A DNA stretch of 64,000 bases. It comes from Candidatus Omnitrophota bacterium. GTDB taxonomy: Bacteria > Omnitrophota > Gorgyraeia > Gygaellales > Profunditerraquicolaceae. Location of the stretch: positions 9,683-73,682 of the forward strand of contig JAPLLR010000043.1 in the NCBI GenBank assembly GCA_026387455.1, read 5' to 3'. The translations under genes and the position numbers were made by a program. A model generated the notes under the pieces. It did no database searches. It saw only the letters and a list, made by a program, of their open reading frames with translations, and had not been told where the DNA came from. Below are positions 4,170 through 59,827 of this stretch, piece after piece (position 1 is the first letter of the stretch; every line of letters begins with the position of its first letter).

Positions 4170-4198
4170 GAGGACGTTCCGGGAAAGGAGCGAAAGAG

Positions 4199-4717
4199 AT
4201 GGATGTTTTAGAAATTCTCAAAAGCAGAAGAAGCGTCAGGCAATACTCAGAAGAGCAGATATCAAAAGAATTTTTGGAGAAGATTGTTGATGCGGCCAGG
4301 TTTTCCCCTACTGCCAGAAATGTCCAGCCGTGGGAGTTTATTGTGATCACTCAAGCGCCTATTTTAAAAAAGCTTGGTGATTTAGCGGAGAACGCAAGAT
4401 TTCTAGCCCAGGCAAAAGCCTGTATCGCGGTATTTTGCGCTGATACAAAATATTATTTGGAAGATGGATGCGCCGCAACCTGTAATATTCTGCTTGCCGC
4501 GACTGCTCTGGGCGTTGGTTCCTGCTGGGTTGCCGGAGATAAGAAACTTTATTGCGAGGAAGTAGCTAAATTATTAAATGTACCTGTCACCTATAAATTG
4601 GTGAGCCTGGTGGCTTTAGGCTACCCTAAGTCCAAAGAAAGTTTCCATATCGCGCAAAAGAGAGGCCTGAAAGAAGTGATTCATTGGGAGAAATTGAAGG
4701 ATGGAAAAAGAGAATAA
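4199..4717 (+). CDS. Nitroreductase family protein
   Basis: RRSVRQY...ARFSPTARNVQPWEFIVI signature of the NfsA/NfsB-type nitroreductase fold; SD GGAGCGAAAGAG upstream. Confidence 0.8.
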   Translation: MDVLEILKSRRSVRQYSEEQISKEFLEKIVDAARFSPTARNVQPWEFIVITQAPILKKLGDLAENARFLAQAKACIAVFCADTKYYLEDGCAATCNILLAATALGVGSCWVAGDKKLYCEEVAKLLNVPVTYKLVSLVALGYPKSKESFHIAQKRGLKEVIHWEKLKDGKRE

Positions 4718-6325: not shown

Positions 6326-9300
6326 ATGATTATCAAAGATTTGATTTTAGTTGACGAATTAACCGGGCATTATAACCGCAGGGGTTTTCGTGAGAGCATC
6401 GGACAGATACTTTCACTTCCCCATGGCGCTGCCAAATCCTTTTATCTTATCCTTACCGATTTAGACCATTTTAAAGATATTAATGACACCTACGGCCACT
6501 TAAGCGGAGACTTCGTGCTTAAGGAATTCGCGGCGCTTTTGGAGCGCGGATTACAGAATACCGAAGCGGTAATTGCCCGCTACGGCGGCGATGAATTTGT
6601 GGCGATTCTAAAAAACTGCAATAGGCAAAATGTAAGCGTCATCTGGGACAAGATACGGCGGGATGTTGCCAATAAAGAATTTATCCTCCCTGGTTCCAAG
6701 CAGAGCCTGCGTCTGACCATGAGCATAGGGATCGTGGAATTCCCTCAGGATGGGTTAACCCAGGAAGAACTGTTAGCTAAAGCCGATGAAGCCCTGTATT
6801 CATCAAAGAGGCTCGGTAAAAACAAACTCACCTTTGCCAACGAGATCCTTGTCCAGACCAAAGAAGAAAAAAGGATCCAAAAGAATATTGCTGAGCCGCC
6901 GTTTGTTGACCGGGCAAACGAATTAGCCGAGATCCAGAAGTTTATTTTTGGAGGGAAAAGCTATAAGCTTATTATCATAAATGGTGAGGTGGGCTGCGGT
7001 AAAAGCCGTATGCTCCAGGAGGTATCCATCCGGGCAAAGGCAAGGAACCTAAAAACATTCTTTCTTGTCTGCGGCGAACAGCAGAAAGAAAAGCCTTACA
7101 GTCTGCTGGAAGATATCATAGGTAGCCTTGTTTACGAGCATGTCGAAATATGCCAAAAGGCGGTGTTCGATCTTCCGCCGAAATTAAAAACCGCGCTCTC
7201 CGCATTACCAAAATTAAAAAGATTATTTGTGCCTCATCTTCATGTGACCCATTGGGATGCCGAGGTGAGGCTAAATCTATTCCACGGGCTCGCAGACCTT
7301 TGTGAAAGCATATTCACCCAGATAAATCCGCTTATTATCGTGGACAATCTCGATTGGATCGATGCCGCAAGCTCAGAAATATTAAGTTTCATAATCCTGT
7401 CTAAGAAACAGACTCCTTTTGTCTTATTAGGAAGCACCAGCCGCCCGGCTTCAAAAACGCACGATAGCGATTCAGCTCTTGATGCGTTGTTGTCGGAGAT
7501 CTCGGAGTTTGAGATTGTGCCTCACATAGCCCTGCCGTTTTTTAATCAGGCAGAGACCGAAGAAGTCGTAAAGGGGATTTTTAGCGGCCATGATATACCT
7601 GAAAAATTCACCAGCGAGTTCTTCGGCGCTACCGAAGGCAACCCCTTTTTCATTGTCGAGTTAATACAATACCTTTGGGACAGGAAAAACATTTATCTGC
7701 AATATCCTCATTGGATATTTCAAATTGACACAAGCCGGCTTCCGAGGGATTTAAGGGAGCTGCTTATCAGCAAGCTGCAAAACCTAGGGGCCGAAGAAAA
7801 GGAATTGCTTCTGGCTGTTTCCGGCATAGGGAGCAACCTTAAGTTTGATTTCCTTTCCAAGCTTAAAAAGATAAACCACGGGCACTTGCAGGATATCCTT
7901 TCCCGCATCTCAGAAAAAAATATCCTAAAGCTCGGAGAAAATCAGGTCGAAGATGAGGTTTTCTTCAATAACGATTCCCTGCGCTCGGTTCTTTATGAGA
8001 GTATCGATACTGAGAAGAAAAAGAAGATCCACCTTGATATTGCTACCACTCTTGAGCATGAATTCAAGAATAATACCGAAGAGATAAGCTCGGAGCTGGC
8101 CTTCCATTTCAACAAGGCAAATCTTGAAGCTAAGACAAAAAACTATGCCCAGCAGGCGGTCGTCTATATCGAAAACCTTTTTTCAAACGCTGAGGCGGAA
8201 AAGGTCATCGAAAATGCCATTAACGACCGGGAAGAGAAGGAGCGCCATGAGCCGATAAAAAAAGATACCTGGCCGCTGATAATGGAGATCATTAGCTCTT
8301 TTAATTCAGCGATAAAAAGTATGCAGATGTACCAGATGCCTAATGAGATCACCACAAAGATGGTCTATAGCCTAGCCAGATGTTTGGAAGAATTTTTTAC
8401 GGCCTACCATATACTTACCTTTAGCTGTCCGTCCGGAGATATCAAGCTTTTGATAAACGGGCAGGAATTGCATCTGCCATCCCATTCGGAAGATATGTTT
8501 ACAAAGACCATTCTTGCCATTATGAACATGGCTAATATCGGAAGCATTACTTTTCATCGCACTGTTTCGGCTAATGAGATCAAGGCATTTATCGGCCTTC
8601 TTTCTAATCCCAAACTATCGATGGAAAAAAAGGAACAATGGAAAAAGATCCTCCTTGATTATAAGATCAACGCCATAAATATCGATGAGGTGCTCTACAA
8701 AAAAGTCTATTCCGAAGAAGAAAAAAGGCAGTTGCATAAGGAATTCATCAAAGAATTCATGATAAAAAGAGCTATCGGAGAGGCTGTTCCTCTGCCGAAG
8801 GAAGGTGGCGCTAAGGTTGGTGACGAGAAAGAAGAGACCAAGGTCATCAAAAAAATAAAGGTTTTCGATGAAGCGGAAACAGACCTTTTTGCTAAAACCA
8901 TCTCCCATTTTTCGCCGGACGTGCTAGTGGAGGTAATTACTGATGAATACCGCCGTCATATAACAGCGATCTTGGATATCAGGGAAATGGTCAAGGTGTG
9001 CCTGAAAGACTCCCAACAAAAAGAAACAATCGCCGTAAAATTGAAAGATGCCCTAATAAAGTTGGGGATGTCGGATGTCTGCTTTGCGTGGCTTATCGAT
9101 AGTCATGATTTTCTGCACTATCCTGTGATCAAGAGGGCCAACACATATTTGAATGCTGATTCCGGAACTATTCTTGCTATGGGGGTTATAGAAAATCTTA
9201 AACCCACCCTTAATGAACTTTTTGTAATAAATGAAAGCGCTCTTGCAGAACAGATCTTGGATAAATATCTTCTGAATTTACAAAGCAGCGAGCTGGAAGC

Positions 9301-10213
9301 AAAGATATATACGGCCGTAACCTTGCCGGAGATCATAAAGATCATTCCCGCGCACCTTGCGGATTTCTACGTGAAAAGAATCACCGCTCTTTTTCTTCAG
9401 GCGCTTCATGTTGAAAATGATCAGCAAGCTTATGAATCGCTTGCGATGGATGCGGGGGCTATTATTTCTCGCTTACAGGAACTCAGCAATTATTGGGATA
9501 TCTATAGGGTTATCTCTACGCTAAAAGAAGATCTTAATGCTTCAGGAGGGCTTGTCTGGAGGAGGCAATTGGCTAAGGAAGCCTTGAAAGGAATAGACAT
9601 ATTTTCTCTGTGCGCTCAGCTAGCAAGTATTCTTGATGAAGTCGCCTTTGATGCCAGCAAGAATGCCTTAGTTATCTCTCTCTTTAAGAAGATGATGCCG
9701 GAAGGGATCCTTTATTTTATTGAGACATTAGAAACAAGGCAATCGAGCACCCTGCTTTTCGAATGGTACCTGCAGAACCTGGAATTACTGGATATACTCA
9801 AGGAATTTAAAACCGAAACCGTGCCTTTCATAGAAATGCTTATTGATTCAGGGGCACAGAAAAGGGTATTGCTTGCTTTAGATATAATGGAAAGGATAAA
9901 TGATGAACAGCAACTTCCTCTTTATGAAAAAGCTATTCAAAGCAATGACCTGGAGATTAAAAGAAATTATTTTCGATCGCTTATTCAGATGAATACAGAA
10001 AGCGCTTTTTCAATGATAAAAAGATTATTTCCCAGACAGGACCCCGAGACACAGCGGGATATTGTCATAGATATGGGGGTGTATGGGAGCAGAAAAGAGA
10101 TGAGTGAGTTTTTGAAAAGCCTGCTTGACCAGAAAATTTATGGGTTAGGCCGAAAAGAAATACTTTTGTACATTGATAAAATTAATACTTGCCTATCTCA
10201 TAAAGGGAAGTAG
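6326..10213 (+). CDS. Large multidomain signalling protein: N-terminal GGDEF domain, P-loop NTPase (AAA_16/STAND-like), and about 850 aa of helical (HEAT/TPR-like) repeats
   Basis: LTGHYNRRGF, DLDHFKDINDTYGH and RYGGDEF motifs in residues 1-170; Walker A GEVGCGKS and Walker B LIIVDNLDWID; long C-terminal helical region. Confidence 0.8.
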   Translation: MIIKDLILVDELTGHYNRRGFRESIGQILSLPHGAAKSFYLILTDLDHFKDINDTYGHLSGDFVLKEFAALLERGLQNTEAVIARYGGDEFVAILKNCNRQNVSVIWDKIRRDVANKEFILPGSKQSLRLTMSIGIVEFPQDGLTQEELLAKADEALYSSKRLGKNKLTFANEILVQTKEEKRIQKNIAEPPFVDRANELAEIQKFIFGGKSYKLIIINGEVGCGKSRMLQEVSIRAKARNLKTFFLVCGEQQKEKPYSLLEDIIGSLVYEHVEICQKAVFDLPPKLKTALSALPKLKRLFVPHLHVTHWDAEVRLNLFHGLADLCESIFTQINPLIIVDNLDWIDAASSEILSFIILSKKQTPFVLLGSTSRPASKTHDSDSALDALLSEISEFEIVPHIALPFFNQAETEEVVKGIFSGHDIPEKFTSEFFGATEGNPFFIVELIQYLWDRKNIYLQYPHWIFQIDTSRLPRDLRELLISKLQNLGAEEKELLLAVSGIGSNLKFDFLSKLKKINHGHLQDILSRISEKNILKLGENQVEDEVFFNNDSLRSVLYESIDTEKKKKIHLDIATTLEHEFKNNTEEISSELAFHFNKANLEAKTKNYAQQAVVYIENLFSNAEAEKVIENAINDREEKERHEPIKKDTWPLIMEIISSFNSAIKSMQMYQMPNEITTKMVYSLARCLEEFFTAYHILTFSCPSGDIKLLINGQELHLPSHSEDMFTKTILAIMNMANIGSITFHRTVSANEIKAFIGLLSNPKLSMEKKEQWKKILLDYKINAINIDEVLYKKVYSEEEKRQLHKEFIKEFMIKRAIGEAVPLPKEGGAKVGDEKEETKVIKKIKVFDEAETDLFAKTISHFSPDVLVEVITDEYRRHITAILDIREMVKVCLKDSQQKETIAVKLKDALIKLGMSDVCFAWLIDSHDFLHYPVIKRANTYLNADSGTILAMGVIENLKPTLNELFVINESALAEQILDKYLLNLQSSELEAKIYTAVTLPEIIKIIPAHLADFYVKRITALFLQALHVENDQQAYESLAMDAGAIISRLQELSNYWDIYRVISTLKEDLNASGGLVWRRQLAKEALKGIDIFSLCAQLASILDEVAFDASKNALVISLFKKMMPEGILYFIETLETRQSSTLLFEWYLQNLELLDILKEFKTETVPFIEMLIDSGAQKRVLLALDIMERINDEQQLPLYEKAIQSNDLEIKRNYFRSLIQMNTESAFSMIKRLFPRQDPETQRDIVIDMGVYGSRKEMSEFLKSLLDQKIYGLGRKEILLYIDKINTCLSHKGK

Positions 10214-11329: not shown

Positions 11330-11469
11330 GTACAAACATTAAAATCAGTTACAAAGGCTTGGGCTTAATGCTTCTAGCGGTAAAATCACACCAGAAATAT
11401 TTTAGGCAACTCTTGAGAATTTAGAGGGTTGCTTATTTTTTTACCCTAGCCTGCTTAAAATTTAATAAT

Positions 11470-11520
11470 ACACCCAACTTTATAGGAGAAGTTGGTGTTC
11501 CGCTTCCTGCGGAAGGAGGT
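11470..11520 (+). promoter_or_regulatory. Conserved two-hairpin 5' leader motif ending in GCGGAAGGAGGT, 5 nt before the carB ATG
   Basis: Near-identical to 23890-23940; hairpin 1 is CAACTT/AAGTTG here versus CTGGC/GCCAG in the other copy (covariation); hairpin 2 is TTCCGC-TTCCT-GCGGAA overlapping the SD. Confidence 0.55.
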
Positions 11521-18715: not shown

Positions 18716-19498
18716 TTATTTTTTGGACTTACCCTGATTGGTAACTGAAGCGATAGCGCTGTTTAATTTCTCAGCGTCAGCAAGATAATAGTGTTTTATG
18801 GGTTTAAGATTCTGATCCAGCTCATAAACCAGTGGAATGCCGGTGGGAATATTCAGTCCTACAATTTCCTCATCAGAAACATTATCCAGGTATTTTACCA
18901 GCGCTCGAAGGCTGTTGCCGTGGGCGGCGATCAATACCTTTTTCCCGGATTTGATGGATGGCCCGATAGTTTCGTGCCAGTAAGGAAGAAAGCGCTCTAC
19001 TGTATCCTTGAGGCACTCGGTGAGCGGAACATCTTTGGGGGCAAGATTCTTGTAGCGCGCCTCATTGCCCGGCCAGCGCGCGTCAGTTTTCTCTAAGGGC
19101 GGAGGAGGGGTGTCGTAACTTCTGCGCCACACCAAGACCTGCTCTTCGCTGAATTTCTGAGCGGTTTCGGACTTGTTCAGGCCCTGCAAAGCGCCGTAAT
19201 GCCGTTCATTCAGGCGCCAGGAATTATATACCGGTATCCACATTTGGTCCATTTTGTCTAAGGTGATCCAAAGGGTGCGGATAGCTCTTTTTAATACCGA
19301 GGTGTAGGCTATATCAAATACAAAGCCTTCTTTTTTTAAGGCTTCTCCGGATTCGGATGCTTCTTGCAGGCCTTTCTCCGATAAGTCTACATCTGTCCAG
19401 CCGGTAAAACGATTTTCTTTGTTCCAGGTGCTTTCTCCGTGCCTTAAGAGTACAAGTTTTATATTATTCATAAAAGTCTCCTTATTAGTGTTTAACAA
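18716..19498 (-). CDS. gpmA: 2,3-bisphosphoglycerate-dependent phosphoglycerate mutase
   Basis: [29 protein letters not shown]...HGNSLRAL; the only convincing minus-strand gene. Confidence 0.95.
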
Positions 19499-23889: not shown

Positions 23890-23940
23890 ACACCTGGCTT
23901 TAAAGGATAGGCCAGTGTTCCGCTTTCTGCGGAAGGAGGT
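23890..23940 (+). promoter_or_regulatory. Second copy of the conserved two-hairpin leader motif, 5 nt before the lemA ATG
   Basis: ACACCTGGCTTTAAAGGATAGGCCAGTGTTCCGCTTTCTGCGGAAGGAGGT; see 11470-11520. Confidence 0.55.
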
Positions 23941-25753: not shown

Positions 25754-26167
25754 ATGCATATTTTCGAGAAATTGCCTTCCCGCCTAGAAATGATCCCCCC
25801 ACTTGTTCAGGCGGTAATAGAAAAATTAGAAAAATCCGGCCTTTCAAAGGAAAAGCTTTTTGATGTGAAGCTTTGTCTTGATGAGGCGCTGGTCAATGCT
25901 GTTAAGCATGGCAATAAATTCAGCCCGGAGCATCATGTGGAGGTAGAGGCTGAGATTACTGGCGATAGTCTGATTATCCAGGTAAGGGATCGGGGGCAGG
26001 GATTTGATTATACTAAGATACCTAATCCTACCGAGAAAAGTAACCTTGAGAAGAATCACGGCCGGGGGGTATTTTTGATCAAAACGCTGATGGATAAAGT
26101 TGAACATTTCGATTCTGGCCGCACCATAAAGATGGTTAAATTTATAAAAAACGGGGGTAAAAAGTGA
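25754..26167 (+). CDS. Anti-sigma regulatory factor, Ser/Thr kinase (RsbW/SpoIIAB-like HATPase)
   Basis: LDEALVNAVKHGN (N-box), DRGQGFD (G1), GRGVFLIKTLMD (G2). Confidence 0.8.
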   Translation: MHIFEKLPSRLEMIPPLVQAVIEKLEKSGLSKEKLFDVKLCLDEALVNAVKHGNKFSPEHHVEVEAEITGDSLIIQVRDRGQGFDYTKIPNPTEKSNLEKNHGRGVFLIKTLMDKVEHFDSGRTIKMVKFIKNGGKK

Positions 26168-28090: not shown

Positions 28091-28132
28091 GTGAGGGCAC
28101 AATTTATGGAGTCCAATGGATGGGCGACATAA

Positions 28133-28172
28133 GGCCCTTCCTAATTGGATAGGAAGGCCTACCCCTGTGGGG
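28133..28172. repeat. Dispersed short palindromic repeat unit (GGCCCTTCCT...ATAGGAAGGCCTACCCCTGTGGGG)
   Basis: Near-identical to units at 44427-44512; internal hairpins CCTTCC/GGAAGG and CCCC-TGT-GGGG. Confidence 0.6.
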
Positions 28173-28284
28173 CAAATTGTATGCCCGAACTTACCCCTGC
28201 AGCTACAAGAAAAATTTTAGGGCAAAGCCCACAAATTTTTCGAAGTGTTTAGCTGCAAGGGGTACAATACTAGTGAGGGTTACT

Positions 28285-28929
28285 ATGAAAAAGGCAAATT
28301 TCAATAATGAGTTTAAGGTGGGGTTATTTGTGGTATTGTGCCTGCTTGGTCTGGGGTATCTGATATTCTCAAGTAATAAGTCCAATATAAAAAAGGGCGG
28401 CTATAATATCTACGTTGTATTTAATGATATCGCCGGACTTGAGGAAAAGGCTCCGGTGATGCTTAACGGCCTTGAAGTGGGCAAAGTCGACGACATTGAT
28501 ATCCTGTATGACGAAGCCGGTACCGCGATTACCCTTAAGCTGTGGCTGGATGATAAGGCAAAAGTGCGTGAGGACGGGGTGGTTTCCATAAAGACCCTTG
28601 GTTTAATGGGTGAGAAATTCATCCAGATATCTTCTGTCGGCAATTCGGAGTTCTTAAAGCCCGGCGCAAAGTTAACGGGCAAACCTTATATGGATATTGA
28701 CGCGCTTTTGGAGCAGGCCCAGATCATGACTAAGAATATCTCGACTGAGGTGAGTAAGCTGGTAGTCAATTTAAACAGCACTGTCGAGGGTAATAAGGGC
28801 AACGTGTCTCAGATAGTTAAGAATCTTGAGGCTACTTCAAAGAATTTCGAAGAGTTTAGCGATGATATCAAACGGCATCCTTGGAAACTTCTGATGAAGA
28901 CCAAGGAAAAACCGCCGGCGAAGAAATAG
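28285..28929 (+). CDS. mlaD: MCE-domain periplasmic substrate-binding protein
   Basis: N-terminal TM helix then an MCE domain. Start moved to the ATG at 28285 with SD GTGAGGG; the ORF track start at 28177 lies in the repeat-containing leader. Confidence 0.8.
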   Translation: MKKANFNNEFKVGLFVVLCLLGLGYLIFSSNKSNIKKGGYNIYVVFNDIAGLEEKAPVMLNGLEVGKVDDIDILYDEAGTAITLKLWLDDKAKVREDGVVSIKTLGLMGEKFIQISSVGNSEFLKPGAKLTGKPYMDIDALLEQAQIMTKNISTEVSKLVVNLNSTVEGNKGNVSQIVKNLEATSKNFEEFSDDIKRHPWKLLMKTKEKPPAKK

Positions 28930-31002: not shown

Positions 31003-31782
31003 ATGGAAAAGAAGGACCCGCGCGTAATTGAGAAAAAGGCTTACGATTTTTTAGTCGAGTCAAAATATGAGGATGCTTTTCACGCTTTTCGCGAGGCAGG
31101 TGATCTTTACAGCGCGGCAGGCAGCCATAAAGAGTCGTCGCTATGCTTCTCTTCCGCGGCAAGCTGTTGGGCGTTGAGGCAGGGGGAGAAGGTGCTCCAG
31201 AACGCAGCTATCTCCTACGAATCGGCGGCATCTGAGGCGGAGAAAGCGGGGGACTATGAGTATGCTTCATTACTGTACCGGTACGCCGCGATTAATTACG
31301 AGAAAGATATGGAGTTCGCGAAGTATTCGGAATGCTTCTTTGCTTCAAAAGAATCGCAGCGCAGGTACTTGATGTTCAGTGTTTTTAATCCTAAAAGGAT
31401 CCATAATATAAGCACAGGCAAGGGTCATAAGTGGACTCATAGTATTATAAAGCGCACCTATCATTGGTTGGGCCTGACCTTTGCGGCTATGCTTTGGGGG
31501 CATGGTGAGCGACCGATGAGGACGTTTTTATTCGCCATCTTTATAATCTTTGCAATGGCGTCTTTGTATACGTTTGGCAGGCTGGAGGCTGATAATGAGG
31601 TGTTTCGGCCCAACATTTTTAGCGCGATGTATTTCAGCGCTATAACTTTTACTACTGTAGGTTATGGGGATATCAATCCAATAGGCCTTACCAGGGCTCT
31701 GGCCATGGTTGAGGCGTTTTGCGGAGTTTTTATTACCCCGCTATTCATTGTCGGTATGTCCCGTAAGTATCTAAGGGTCTAG
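31003..31782 (+). CDS. Potassium channel (two-TM pore domain) with an N-terminal cytoplasmic helical domain
   Basis: Selectivity filter TVGYGD in ITFTTVGYGDINP, flanked by TM helices. Confidence 0.8.
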   Translation: MEKKDPRVIEKKAYDFLVESKYEDAFHAFREAGDLYSAAGSHKESSLCFSSAASCWALRQGEKVLQNAAISYESAASEAEKAGDYEYASLLYRYAAINYEKDMEFAKYSECFFASKESQRRYLMFSVFNPKRIHNISTGKGHKWTHSIIKRTYHWLGLTFAAMLWGHGERPMRTFLFAIFIIFAMASLYTFGRLEADNEVFRPNIFSAMYFSAITFTTVGYGDINPIGLTRALAMVEAFCGVFITPLFIVGMSRKYLRV

Positions 31783-31872
31783 CCCAGGAAGGGCAGACCT
31801 TTCTACCCTATAAGAAAGGGTCTAGCCCAGAAAGGTCTAGTCGGTCTAAAAAGAATTATAAAGATTTTATTT

Positions 31873-31900
31873 GACTAAGGCACTAATTGTGTTATACTTT
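31873..31900 (+). promoter_or_regulatory. Sigma70-like promoter (TTGACT - 16 nt - TATACT) for rplM-rpsI
   Basis: Hexamers read from the sequence about 80 nt upstream of rplM; the leader contains a CCAGAC...GTCTGG hairpin. Confidence 0.45.
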
Positions 31901-43540: not shown

Positions 43541-44411
43541 GGGTTCCATTACCGCAATTGTTACGCCTTTCAAAAACGGCCAGGTTGATGAAAAGAAATT
43601 CAGGGAACTGATCGAGTTTCAGATCAAGCACGGCACTTTCGGAATAGTCCCCTGCGGCACTACCGGAGAATCCGCTACTTTGAACTTTGAAGAGCATGAC
43701 TGCGTGATCGAGATCGCTATCGAGCAAGCCAAAAAGAGGGTGCCGGTGATCGCTGGCACAGGGTCTAATTCCACCGAGGAAGCGATTATGCTCACAAAGC
43801 ACGCGGCCAAGGCCGGGGCAGACGCCTCTTTGCAGGTCTCTCCTTATTACAACCGCCCTACGCAAAAAGGCCTGTATCTGCATTTTAAGGCCATAGCGGA
43901 TGCCGTGGATATACCGATCATTTTATACAATATCGCCTCGCGTACGGGAGTGAATATTGAGCCGGAGACCATCGCCCAGTTAGCTAAGGACTGCAAAAAT
44001 ATAGTGGCAGTCAAGGAGGCTTCGGGGAGCTTGGACCAGATGTCGCGGGTGAAGGCGCTGTGCCCGGACAGCTTTGAGCTGATTTCCGGAGATGATAGTC
44101 TGACTTTGCCGGTATTAAGTATCGGCGGGACCGGGATCATCTCGGTAGTGTCAAACATCATCCCTAAAGATATGGCTGATATGGTGGCGGCTTTTGAAAA
44201 AGGCGACATCAAGAAGGCCCAAAGTCTGCATTTCAAGATGCTGCCTTTGATCAAGGCGATATTCATCGAGACTAACCCGATCCCCGTAAAGACCGCAATG
44301 GGGTTGATGGGGCTGTGCGAACCGGATTTGCGTTTGCCGATGTGTCCGATGTCGCCGGATAATTTAGAGAAGTTGAAGAAAGCGCTTAAGGATTACGGAT
44401 TGATAAAATAA
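43533..44411 (+). CDS. dapA: 4-hydroxy-tetrahydrodipicolinate synthase
   Basis: GSITAIVTPF...CGTTGES and Schiff-base Lys in VAVKEASG; start at the ATG at 43533 with SD AAAGGAGAG (track start 43473). Confidence 0.93.
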   Translation: MFRGSITAIVTPFKNGQVDEKKFRELIEFQIKHGTFGIVPCGTTGESATLNFEEHDCVIEIAIEQAKKRVPVIAGTGSNSTEEAIMLTKHAAKAGADASLQVSPYYNRPTQKGLYLHFKAIADAVDIPIILYNIASRTGVNIEPETIAQLAKDCKNIVAVKEASGSLDQMSRVKALCPDSFELISGDDSLTLPVLSIGGTGIISVVSNIIPKDMADMVAAFEKGDIKKAQSLHFKMLPLIKAIFIETNPIPVKTAMGLMGLCEPDLRLPMCPMSPDNLEKLKKALKDYGLIK

Positions 44412-44412
44412 A

Positions 44413-44601
44413 ACACCTGGCTTTAGCCCCTTCCTTAGTCCCTTCCTTAAAAGGTATAGGAAGGACTACCCCTGTGGGGTTAAAAGGTATAGGAAGGGCT
44501 ACCTCTCTGGGGTTATAGGATAAGCCAGTGTTCCGTCCTAAAAAGGACGCACCCAGCATACCTTTTAGCTGGGGTGCAGCTTTTTGCGCAAGGAGAGTTA
44601 G
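44413..44601 (+). promoter_or_regulatory. dapB leader: third copy of the conserved leader motif, split by an inserted tandem REP-like repeat
   Basis: ACACCTGGCTTT (44413-44424) and AAGCCAGTGTTCCG (44522-44535) match the two arms of hairpin 1 of the carB/lemA leader; 44425-44521 between them carries the repeat units. Confidence 0.5.
44427..44512. repeat. Two tandem units of the dispersed palindromic repeat (AAAAGGTATAGGAAGGnCTACCyCTsTGGGG)
   Basis: Direct tandem duplication, related to 28133-28172. Confidence 0.6.
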
Positions 44602-45312
44602 ATGATTAAACTAGGCATAGCGGGTGCTTGCGGAAGGATGGGCAGGCGTATATTTGAACTGGCGCAGCAGGATAAGGATTTTGATATCACTCTTGCTCTT
44701 GAGAAAAAAGGTACTCCTCTGATCGGAAAAGATTTAGGTAGGATCAAAGTCTCATCTAGTCCGGACGGGTTATTCCTTACGGATGTGCTTATTGATTTTA
44801 CCCTTCCTGAGGCGGCGGAAGAACACCTGGATTATGTGGCTAAATATAGGAAAGCGCTGGTTCTGGGCACTACCGGATTGACTGACGCGCAGCTTAAAAA
44901 GGTGGAAGAGGTTTCCGGTGTTGTGCCGGTGGTTTTTTCGCCCAATATGTCTATCGGTGTGAATGTCTTGTTCTTAGCTTTGCCGGAATTAGCCAGAAAG
45001 CTCGGACCCGACTACAATATTGAGATAGTCGAGGCGCATCATAAAGCCAAGAAAGACGCGCCTTCCGGAACAGCCAAGAAATTAATTGAGGTCTTGGCTA
45101 ATGCGACGGGCAAAGAGATACCTACACACGCCATCCGCTTAGGGGACATTGTGGGCGACCATACGGTGATATTCTGCGGTAATTCTGAGCGCATTGAGAT
45201 CAAACATCAGGCGCATTCCCGCGATTTATTTGCAGTCGGCGCGCTGAAGGCGGCGAAATGGATATTTAACAAACCTGCGGGGTTATATTCCATGCAGGAT
45301 GTGCTGAAATAA
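44602..45312 (+). CDS. dapB: 4-hydroxy-tetrahydrodipicolinate reductase
   Basis: IKLGIAGACGRMGRRI NAD(P)-binding N-terminus and the EAHHKAKKDAPSGTA motif. Confidence 0.92.
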   Translation: MIKLGIAGACGRMGRRIFELAQQDKDFDITLALEKKGTPLIGKDLGRIKVSSSPDGLFLTDVLIDFTLPEAAEEHLDYVAKYRKALVLGTTGLTDAQLKKVEEVSGVVPVVFSPNMSIGVNVLFLALPELARKLGPDYNIEIVEAHHKAKKDAPSGTAKKLIEVLANATGKEIPTHAIRLGDIVGDHTVIFCGNSERIEIKHQAHSRDLFAVGALKAAKWIFNKPAGLYSMQDVLK

Positions 45313-59766: not shown

Positions 59767-59827
59767 CACCCCAATACCCCCAAACTTAATGGATAGTTTG
59801 GGGTGAGCTTGTGCTCAAGGAGGTTAC

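Follow-up and report, generated by a model that had tools for sequence, protein, structure and literature searches.

Several groups of short repeats are known from the spacers between bacterial genes. MIRUs are repeats of 40-100 nucleotides (nt) that lie in the intercistronic spacers of operons, are oriented with the operon, and are linked to translation signals of the adjacent genes. Miniature inverted-repeat transposable elements (MITEs) of the Correia, ERIC, BOX and RUP types are small and non-autonomous, are co-transcribed with neighboring genes, form RNA hairpins and can supply expression signals. A structured leader may also be the operator of a regulator, as in the CsrA-controlled leader of Bacillus subtilis hag, where a hairpin with GGA in its loop lies upstream of a second GGA that overlaps the Shine-Dalgarno (SD) sequence. 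The BOX elements of pneumococci are transcribed, adding to operons at their 5' and 3' ends (PMC3049150), and the open reading frames (ORFs) created by BOX in the same study are without good SD sequences (PMC3049150). The definition of REPINs includes predicted folding in single-stranded DNA or mRNA (PMC3116915). Here, we describe an element found in 64,000 nt of DNA from a Candidatus Omnitrophota bacterium (contig JAPLLR010000043.1, positions 9,683 to 73,682; hereafter the window), where it precedes carB and lemA. These two leaders are copies of an undescribed, lineage-specific interspersed repeat of ~50 nt that forms two hairpins and is scattered through Omnitrophota-type genomes, Omnitrophota being a phylum of the Planctomycetes-Verrucomicrobia-Chlamydiae (PVC) group.

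An earlier note, made from the letters of the window, had reported a motif of 51 nt placed 5 nt before the ATG of two unrelated genes, and both copies are found as stated (Table 1). Each terminates in GCGGAAGGAGGT, followed by 5 nt and then the ATG. The genes they precede have nothing in common by Pfam, which identifies the first as the large chain of carbamoyl-phosphate synthase (E 2.7e-99) and the second as a LemA-family protein (E 5.5e-48); an exact database look-up of the window LemA protein gave no record. The copies share a 25-mer, GTGTTCCGCTTYCTGCGGAAGGAGG, which occurs twice in the window against 0.00 occurrences expected from 100 shuffles. RNA folding places ACAC, a bulged C, a variable stem of 6 base pairs (bp), an 8-nt loop, the return strand and GUGU in hairpin 1. 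Hairpin 2 abuts it, with a 5-nt loop between UCCGC and GCGGA, and AGGAGG comes next. As the note had also observed, the stem of hairpin 1 has a different sequence in each copy (Table 1) while its complementarity is kept, with one G.U pair.

A wider search and a covariance model, which the note had proposed as checks, brought to light both further copies and covariation in related DNA. The model (R1) was built from 10 copies and searched against 552 kb comprising the window and related loci, which are metagenome contigs and metagenome-assembled genomes (MAGs) referred to below by L-numbers. It detected 142 units in this Omnitrophota-like DNA, so that the resemblance of the two leaders goes well beyond chance. 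Among species-representative genomes, matches to GTTCCGCNNNNNGCGGAAGGAGG were mostly due to chance, but they included 12 full-motif copies, all of them in MAGs labelled Candidatus Omnitrophota or Planctomycetales; stem 1 is different in each of the 12 and paired in all. In metagenomes, a pattern with 20 specified bases found 81 loci, of which ~77 were full copies, with lake sediment and groundwater as the main sources, and a start codon follows a few bases past GGAGG in almost all of these loci. Viral contigs gave no match to the 25-mer pattern. Rfam 15 had no match to the whole window at gathering thresholds, none to the motif in a permissive search (E up to 10), and none to the units in 16 loci or to a composite of units in L134. 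A literature search on the SD-bearing 11-mer, and on Omnitrophota together with CsrA, RNA motifs or repeats, produced nothing relevant and no description of the unit.

The hairpins are supported by extensive covariation. Across the alignment of 142 units, 98.1% of the cells in helix positions are paired, whereas shuffles reach 79.5% and slid partners no more than 55%, and compensatory changes occur in all 15 pairs (340 cells). Forty-nine units are independent of the search pattern, and in these hairpin 2 covaries through CCGC/GCGG, CCAC/GUGG, CCCC/GGGG, ACGC/GCGU, GCAC/GUGC, GAGC/GCUC and other combinations. G.U pairs outnumber A.C mismatches by 44 to 13, and the folding strand is therefore the unit's own strand. 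A mutual-information scan of the alignment found no covarying positions beyond the two hairpins; this restriction to helix pairs argues that there is no pseudoknot or ligand pocket, and it excluded loop-loop kissing or a pseudoknot as candidate structures.

A full unit begins with a short TTA, its 5' end reading (T)TAACACC, and continues through ACACC, a variable but always paired stem, an 8-nt loop UA(A/U)(A/C)GGAU, the return strand and GGUGU. Hairpin 1 is a palindrome of ~29 nt with a bulged C. The second hairpin is small, abuts the first and has a pyrimidine-rich loop; in the main subfamily it is UUCCGC/GCGGAA and runs directly into GGAGG. Most units have the hairpin-1 loop UAWMGGAU, and related subfamilies have GGU, GGG or UGA in the loop. 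Sequence conservation is concentrated in this loop, in the base of hairpin 1 and in hairpin 2, leaving stem 1 free to vary.

The GGAGG of these units is clearly used as a Shine-Dalgarno sequence. It lies 3-9 nt from a start codon in 90 of the 94 distinct SD-bearing units, most often at 5-6 nt. Under the standard pairing with an anti-SD, GGAAGGAGGU could make 9-10 pairs with a 16S tail of the general form ...ACCUCCUUUC. The downstream genes have no common function. They include carB, lemA, dapB, genes for a secretin, a substrate-binding protein, one or more transporters, a PilZ protein, an Rrf2 protein, adenylosuccinate lyase and small lipoproteins, and H+-PPase-like, purF-like, rpoZ-like and metB-like genes.

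From the pyrimidines in the hairpin-2 loop, the earlier note had suggested that the motif belongs to a family of SD-sequestering leaders that respond to temperature or to a ligand. A genuine covarying family with an SD in use is what we find, but the sequestering part of this proposal did not hold. Pairing of CUUCC or CUUUC with GGAAG is indeed possible in both window copies. Among 131 distinct sequences, however, the CUUYC/GGAAG helix is paired in 76.8% of cells, exactly the shuffle mean (76.8%); 299 of 500 shuffles reach the observed pairing, partners slid by +1 do better (80.5%), and the helix does not covary. A second candidate helix, CUUUCU/AGGAGG, was no better and likewise showed no covariation. 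The hairpin-2 loop is not conserved, being UUUCU in 64 units, CCACU in 11 and UUACU in 10, with CUACU, CCAUU and others besides, and variants such as CCACU cannot pair with the SD. The apparent complementarity simply reflects a pyrimidine-rich loop facing a purine-rich SD, and no conserved pairing sequesters the SD.

Predicted RNA ensembles for 64 leaders with their natural flanks point the same way. The SD is paired with the 5' strand and loop of hairpin 2 in 13.5% of the predicted ensemble. Its predicted unpaired probability is 0.35 at 20 °C and 0.47 at 45 °C, a slight rise in the direction that a thermometer would show, though the change is small. At the same time, the SD is predicted to be unpaired with a probability of 0.415 in the natural leaders compared to 0.35 when the unit is shuffled (p = 0.01). 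With covariation confined to the hairpins, no functional theme among the genes, no Rfam riboswitch or thermometer family on the units, and an occurrence that resembles a repeat, we consider it very improbable that the unit is an RNA thermometer or small riboswitch in which loop CUUCC pairs with the SD.

Rfam riboswitches were observed on related contigs (three c-di-GMP-I, one thiamine pyrophosphate (TPP) and one fluoride; Table 1). Two of the c-di-GMP-I aptamers are at most ~100 nt from repeat units, so that units share leaders with genuine riboswitches. A cassette consisting of three-frame stop codons and an SD was also considered and set aside, as only 9 of 94 units qualify. Integron attC sites were discarded as well, because the register of the AAC...GTT ends is wrong and the neighboring genes are housekeeping genes.

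The family extends beyond leaders. Relative to the nearest SD-bearing unit, SD-less units are on the same strand in 17 cases and on the opposite strand in 18. Direct units adjoin inverted ones in L112, L059, L134, L148, L063 and the window (44411-44601), and tandem units occur in L034 and L063. Units also nest. In the commonest composite, a complete second unit sits mid-way in the 8-nt loop of the first, with UAAA, UAUC or UAAU to its left and GGAU to its right, while in a second layout (window 44411-44601, L033, L065, L079) the inner unit lies just 5' of an intact loop. Some subfamilies of inner units are near-identical across unrelated contigs, for example GCACCTTGGCATAAAGGATTGCCAAGTGC. The leaders of orthologous H+-PPase genes are simple in three contigs and hold a clean extra unit of 44 nt in seven, and an independent insertion of 46 nt is seen in the ortholog trio L101, L136 and L154. 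Orthologous leaders can also have wholly different stems amid similar flanks. Units also form fixed composite modules. At 1455-2040 of L134, a composite of ~240 nt built from five direct, inverted and nested units is duplicated almost exactly before two successive genes.

Two of these composites have further features. The one in L134 sits behind a sigma-70-like promoter (TTGACA, then TATCAT), and the genes after its duplicated leaders are an ORF of ~26 amino acids and an Rrf2-family regulator. In L114 (245-343), the outer flanks are direct, whereas the loop and its inner unit are reversed with respect to the outer stem, the inner unit being on the other strand, a layout that suggests an inversion between the hairpin arms.

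Comparison of orthologous sites shows that units come and go. By tblastn, close relatives of the window are L032, a Candidatus Omnitrophota MAG with a carB of 86% amino acid identity, L118 (63-93%), L132 (59-82%) and L152 (68-85%). We compared nine gene junctions between the window and L118, L132 and L152, and a unit is present in only one genome at four of the nine and in both at none (Table 1). A further difference is found at carB, which has a unit in the window, whereas carB of L032 follows a different upstream gene and has a plain AGGGAG SD. At three sites (carB and the junctions before the orthologs of the genes at 26164 and 54227), the relative has a native SD of another sequence at the position taken by the GGAAGGAGG of the unit, which suggests that the cassette arrives with an SD of its own. 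Occupancy is thus polymorphic, units nest in one another, and the genes downstream are diverse. SD-less, inverted, tandem and nested units with variable occupancy are the behavior of a repeat element, not of a gene-specific regulator.

At the mlaF-mlaD spacer, the extra ~177 nt of the window (28093-28285), which include an SD-less unit, lie between 8-bp direct repeats AGTGAGGG that overlap the mlaD SD. This DNA looks like the product of a separate insertion event. By homology, MlaD starts at ATG 28286 and not at the TTG at 28177 chosen by the ORF finder.

These observations are probably best accounted for by a structured mini-element, akin to REP and MITE elements, whose main subfamily supplies a consensus SD and acts as a constitutive translation start region. 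At the DNA level, it would be a non-autonomous mobile or duplicative repeat that is gained, lost and replaced at orthologous sites, and that nests exactly at the middle of its own loop (UAAA^GGAU), a sequence resembling a ribosome-binding site. The SD-bearing subfamily would land on, or replace, the native ribosome-binding sites of unrelated genes. Once there, the unit would become the translation start region of the gene, with two stacked hairpins directly 5' of an SD, GGAAGGAGGU (up to 9-10 nt), that lies 5-6 nt from the start codon and is free of any conserved pairing. Its effect on the mRNA would likely be constitutive, consisting of strong, context-insulated initiation and of protection of the flanking cistrons by the hairpins, with no switching. 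SD-like sequences may be the preferred landing sites, since the loop UAAAGGAU, the nesting site UAAA^GGAU and the native SD contexts TAAGGAG, TAAAGGAG and TATAGGAG look alike; landing on such sequences would in turn put SD-bearing copies in register with the start codon. Both the target preference and the stabilizing or insulating role in the RNA are inferred. Mobility could perhaps come from an HUH-type enzyme acting on hairpin DNA, or from microhomology at TAA/GGA.

A stronger form of this model is conceivable, though we hold it only tentatively and think it doubtful as a whole. Here, the unit would be a self-nesting micro-element of a new class that serves as a mobile ribosome-binding site. 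Its loop would mimic its own insertion site, UAAA^GGAU, its 3' end would carry a consensus SD, and it would home to TAA^GGAGG, overwriting the start signals of unrelated genes throughout the phylum with the help of an undiscovered hairpin-recognizing enzyme, HUH-like or other.

Several observations weigh against a mobile mini-element. The window and ~550 kb of related DNA yielded no transposase, RAYT or TnpA, which is weak evidence given that many genomes are thinly sampled. The tblastn searches of the window and every locus with IS608 TnpA and RAYT, a weak test, gave no match in unit-bearing DNA, and Pfam found ordinary genes only among the ORFs adjoining clusters of units. There is no clean target-site duplication or terminal inverted repeat, and the insertion junctions are heterogeneous. 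Stem 1 differs among the copies of one genome, unlike the conserved arms of typical REP and MITE families. The predicted gain in SD accessibility over shuffles is small (0.415 versus 0.35), so that an insulating role is weakly supported. Copy counts come from contigs. Finally, orthologous loci that differ by ~10% in their flanks have an identical 25-mer. This identity could come from recent spread, from gene conversion or from the binding of a trans-acting factor, and it may be purifying selection by such a factor, rather than recent spread, that maintains it.

Strict conservation of the 25-mer at loci with diverged flanks is also what would be expected of a leader that works purely for its host. 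Such a leader, be it a translation enhancer, a ribosome standby site or an mRNA stabilizer, would spread by duplication or gene conversion without dedicated machinery, and its SD-like loop UAAAGGAU would recruit 30S subunits beside the true SD. The use of GGAGG as an SD at the usual spacing is in keeping with this, as are the slightly greater accessibility of the SD than in shuffled controls and the resemblance of the loop to the native SD contexts of the window (TAAGGAG, TATAGGAG, TAAAGGAG). However, units are also inverted, lack an SD and occupy positions resembling 3' untranslated regions (UTRs); clean insertions of 44-46 nt place them inside other units' loops; some loops, UAUCGGAU among them (24 copies), match the anti-SD poorly; and occupancy turns over fast between relatives at 63-93% amino acid identity. 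We therefore regard a purely host-functional leader as unlikely.

The unit could instead be the operator of a global translational regulator of the CsrA/RsmA type, or of an analogue. One protomer would hold the GGA of the hairpin-1 loop and the other the SD, GGAAGGAGG, ~26 nt downstream, so that 30S subunits would be kept off many mRNAs at once. The CsrA consensus from in vitro selection (SELEX) is RUACARGGAUGU with GGA in a hairpin loop, and the loop consensus UA(A/U)(A/C)GGAU resembles it. The second GGA overlaps the SD, and the spacing of ~26 nt suits dual-site binding, for which sites lie 10-63 nt apart. Diverse downstream genes are typical of a global regulon, and a conserved loop, hairpin-1 base and hairpin 2 around a free stem would fit recognition by a protein. 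Yet about half of the SD-less units are inverted (17 same, 18 opposite), so that the mRNA would show AUCC in place of GGA, and the related subfamilies have GGU, GGG or UGA in the loop. CsrA would not account for the conserved sequence of the hairpin-2 stem, and occupancy at orthologous genes is not conserved. Searches of the window and loci for csrA and FliW by tblastn were empty in unit-bearing DNA, which is weak evidence given the thin sampling. No word starting with 'flagell' appears in the main text of a 421-genome survey of Omnitrophota (PMC10066038), and the usual CsrA-FliW setting is thus not evident. Taken together, these points make a CsrA-type operator decidedly improbable.

The mini-element that we favor is represented in the window by six intergenic sites with seven covariance-model matches in 64 kb (Table 1). 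Besides the carB and lemA leaders, a diverged SD-bearing unit occupies the whole 61-nt spacer between a gene resembling T2SS-B of the type II secretion system (stop 59766) and the secretin gene (ATG 59828; Pfam). In its hairpin 1, CCCCAAACT/AGTTTGGGG encloses the loop TAATGGAT, and its hairpin 2, TGAGC-TTGT-GCTCA, is compensatory relative to TCCGC/GCGGA and is followed by AAGGAGG. In the dapA-dapB spacer, an outer hairpin, ACACCTGGCTT...AAGCCAGTGTTCCG, surrounds two more units, one inside the other, with loops TTAAAAGGTATA; a complete inverted unit follows at 44532-44579(-), and then come the dapB SD, AAGGAGAG, and the ATG at 44602. The model matches here are 44435-44489(+), 44547-44598(+) and 44532-44579(-), with 44411-44642 in a second search, and the same nested layout recurs in L033, L065 and L105. 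The SD-less unit at 28130-28176 is within the mlaF-mlaD spacer, flanked by genes with MlaD and ABC ATPase Pfam matches. The inverted unit at 31777-31825 overlaps the stop codon (31780-31782) of a plus-strand ion-channel gene (31003-31782) and lies upstream of the rplM-rpsI promoter. Read on the minus strand, its hairpin 1 consists of GACCCTTTC, TTATAGGGTA and GAAAGGTC and its hairpin 2 of GCCC-TTCCT-GGGC.

Table 1. Units and their parts in the window, occupancy at compared junctions, and riboswitches on related contigs.
Feature	Position	Strand	Details
carB-leader unit	11470-11520	+	carB ATG 11526; covariance-model scores 75.3 and 71.5 bits
carB unit, hairpin 1	11470-11498		ACAC, bulged C, CAACTT, loop TATAGGAG (11481-11488), AAGTTG, GTGT
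carB unit, hairpin 2	11499-11513		TCCGC, TTCCT, GCGGA
carB unit, SD core GGAGG	11515-11519	+	
lemA-leader unit	23890-23940	+	lemA ATG 23946; covariance-model scores 78.9 and 74.6 bits
lemA unit, hairpin 1	23890-23918		stem TGGCTT/AGGCCA, loop TAAAGGAT
lemA unit, hairpin 2	23919-23933		loop TTTCT
lemA unit, SD core GGAGG	23935-23939	+	
Diverged SD-bearing unit	59774-59825	+	E 6e-9 and 3.4e-11
Nested composite, dapA-dapB spacer	44411-44601	+	fills the spacer; dapA and dapB by Pfam
SD-less unit	28130-28176	+	E 1.8e-5; GGCCCTTCC, TAATTGGATA, GGAAGGCC, then CCCC-TGT-GGGG
Inverted SD-less unit	31777-31825	-	E 6e-4 and 1.1e-6
Junction before ortholog of window gene 26164			unit in L118 only; upstream L118 ORF now ends in the unit loop
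Junction before ortholog of window gene 54227			unit in L132 only; window has TAGGAGATAATG there
Junction before secretin			unit in window only; L152 site without unit
mlaF-mlaD spacer			193 nt with unit in window; 16 nt in L118
Rfam riboswitches on related contigs	L111 1673-1756 and 7593-7679; L123 12499-12634; L063 4387-4495; L005 7576-7642		

Several of these sites have neighbors of note. On the 5' side of the carB unit (11407-11469), a terminator-like hairpin with a T-run, GCAACTCT...AGAGGGTTGC TTATTTTTTT, is followed by a promoter-like TTTACC-18-AATAAT that ends at 11469, and this copy may start at or near the transcription start. As a general rule, a unit that always forms the 5' end of a transcript behind a fixed-distance promoter was rejected: there is no conserved -10 element upstream, and many units, such as that at 59774, begin a few nt past an upstream stop codon. 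Two distant LemA homologues with 37% amino acid identity to the window protein (L138 3908-4601 and L091 6387-6973) also have SD-bearing units upstream; the presence of the cassette before three diverged lemA genes could be due to chance or to site preference. In the dapB composite, the 5' half of a hairpin 2, GTGTTCCG (44529-44536), has no local partner, and the covariance model pairs it with CGGAAGGATGG (44631-44642), which lies 95 nt downstream inside dapB, in the codons for the N-terminal GRMG motif. This predicted pairing would enclose the SD and ATG of dapB, and it may be a coincidence.

Between the inverted unit and rplM-rpsI there is a near-consensus promoter (31871-31898; TTGACT, a 16-nt spacer, a TG extension and TATACT). 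Ahead of the ATG at 4199, GACGTTCCGGGAAAGGAGCG (4170-4198) looks like hairpin 2 and the SD minus the loop and may be a decayed unit; the ortholog of this gene in L029 has a different spacer. Nearly all long ORFs in the window (1-64000; G+C 45.8%) are on the plus strand, amounting to ~60 genes, with one clear minus-strand gene at 18716-19498. A protein of 1295 amino acids encoded at 6326-10213 has an N-terminal GGDEF diguanylate cyclase domain and a NACHT/AAA-type STAND ATPase region.

If our preferred model of a mini-element that supplies the SD is correct, part of the translation start signals of Omnitrophota would derive from a proliferating structured repeat and not from gene-by-gene evolution, and ribosome-binding sites would then be rewritten, in an unusually direct way, by selfish or domesticated DNA. 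The ~140 naturally varied modules of two hairpins and an SD would be useful for studying SD-adjacent structure and initiation, and the unit could mark this uncultured lineage in metagenomes. The unit also carries a caution for RNA-motif discovery, in that strong covariation and a position next to the SD do not by themselves indicate a riboswitch or thermometer.

Among known elements, those closest to the unit are the REP/BIME/REPIN group, the Correia, ERIC and BOX-type MITEs and the MIRUs, with which it has in common its small size, extragenic position, capacity to form hairpins, clustering and turnover. The unit and the REP/BIME/REPIN elements are both short, extragenic, imperfect palindromes in many copies that occur as singlets, inverted pairs, tandems and clusters, both are predicted to fold in single-stranded DNA or mRNA, both take intercistronic and 3'-UTR positions, and both turn over within a lineage. 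Unlike REP and REPIN sequences, the units lack the 5' GTAG tetranucleotide, and it is their loop that is conserved while the arms vary and covary. They also have a second small hairpin as an obligatory part, nest in their own loop and, in the main subfamily, end in a consensus SD at start codons. Known REPs and REPINs are mobilized by RAYT tyrosine transposases, whereas no RAYT was found in the unit-bearing DNA searched. Presence/absence polymorphism at orthologous sites, as expected of a mobile repeat, is seen at four of nine junctions, at carB in L032 and for inner units. MITEs of the Correia, ERIC, BOX and RUP types are larger (100-150 nt or more) and have conserved terminal inverted repeats and target duplications, of TA or otherwise; in the units, the arms are not conserved, the junctions show no consistent duplication, and the only direct repeat seen is the 8-bp AGTGAGGG at the mlaD-spacer insert. 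We know of no element of these types that carries the SD of the downstream gene as a rule. MIRUs act through small overlapping ORFs and translational coupling and are tandem direct repeats without the conserved two-hairpin fold, whereas few units have three-frame stop codons (9 of 94) and their link to translation is the built-in SD. Leaders of the hag type share with the units a GGA in a hairpin loop and a downstream GGA that overlaps the SD, but the units are multicopy and mobile-like, have inverted and SD-less members and GGU or UGA loops, and occur where csrA was not detected. The unit is therefore related to the REP and MITE families but stands outside both, having neither GTAG and conserved arms nor terminal inverted repeats and target-site duplications.

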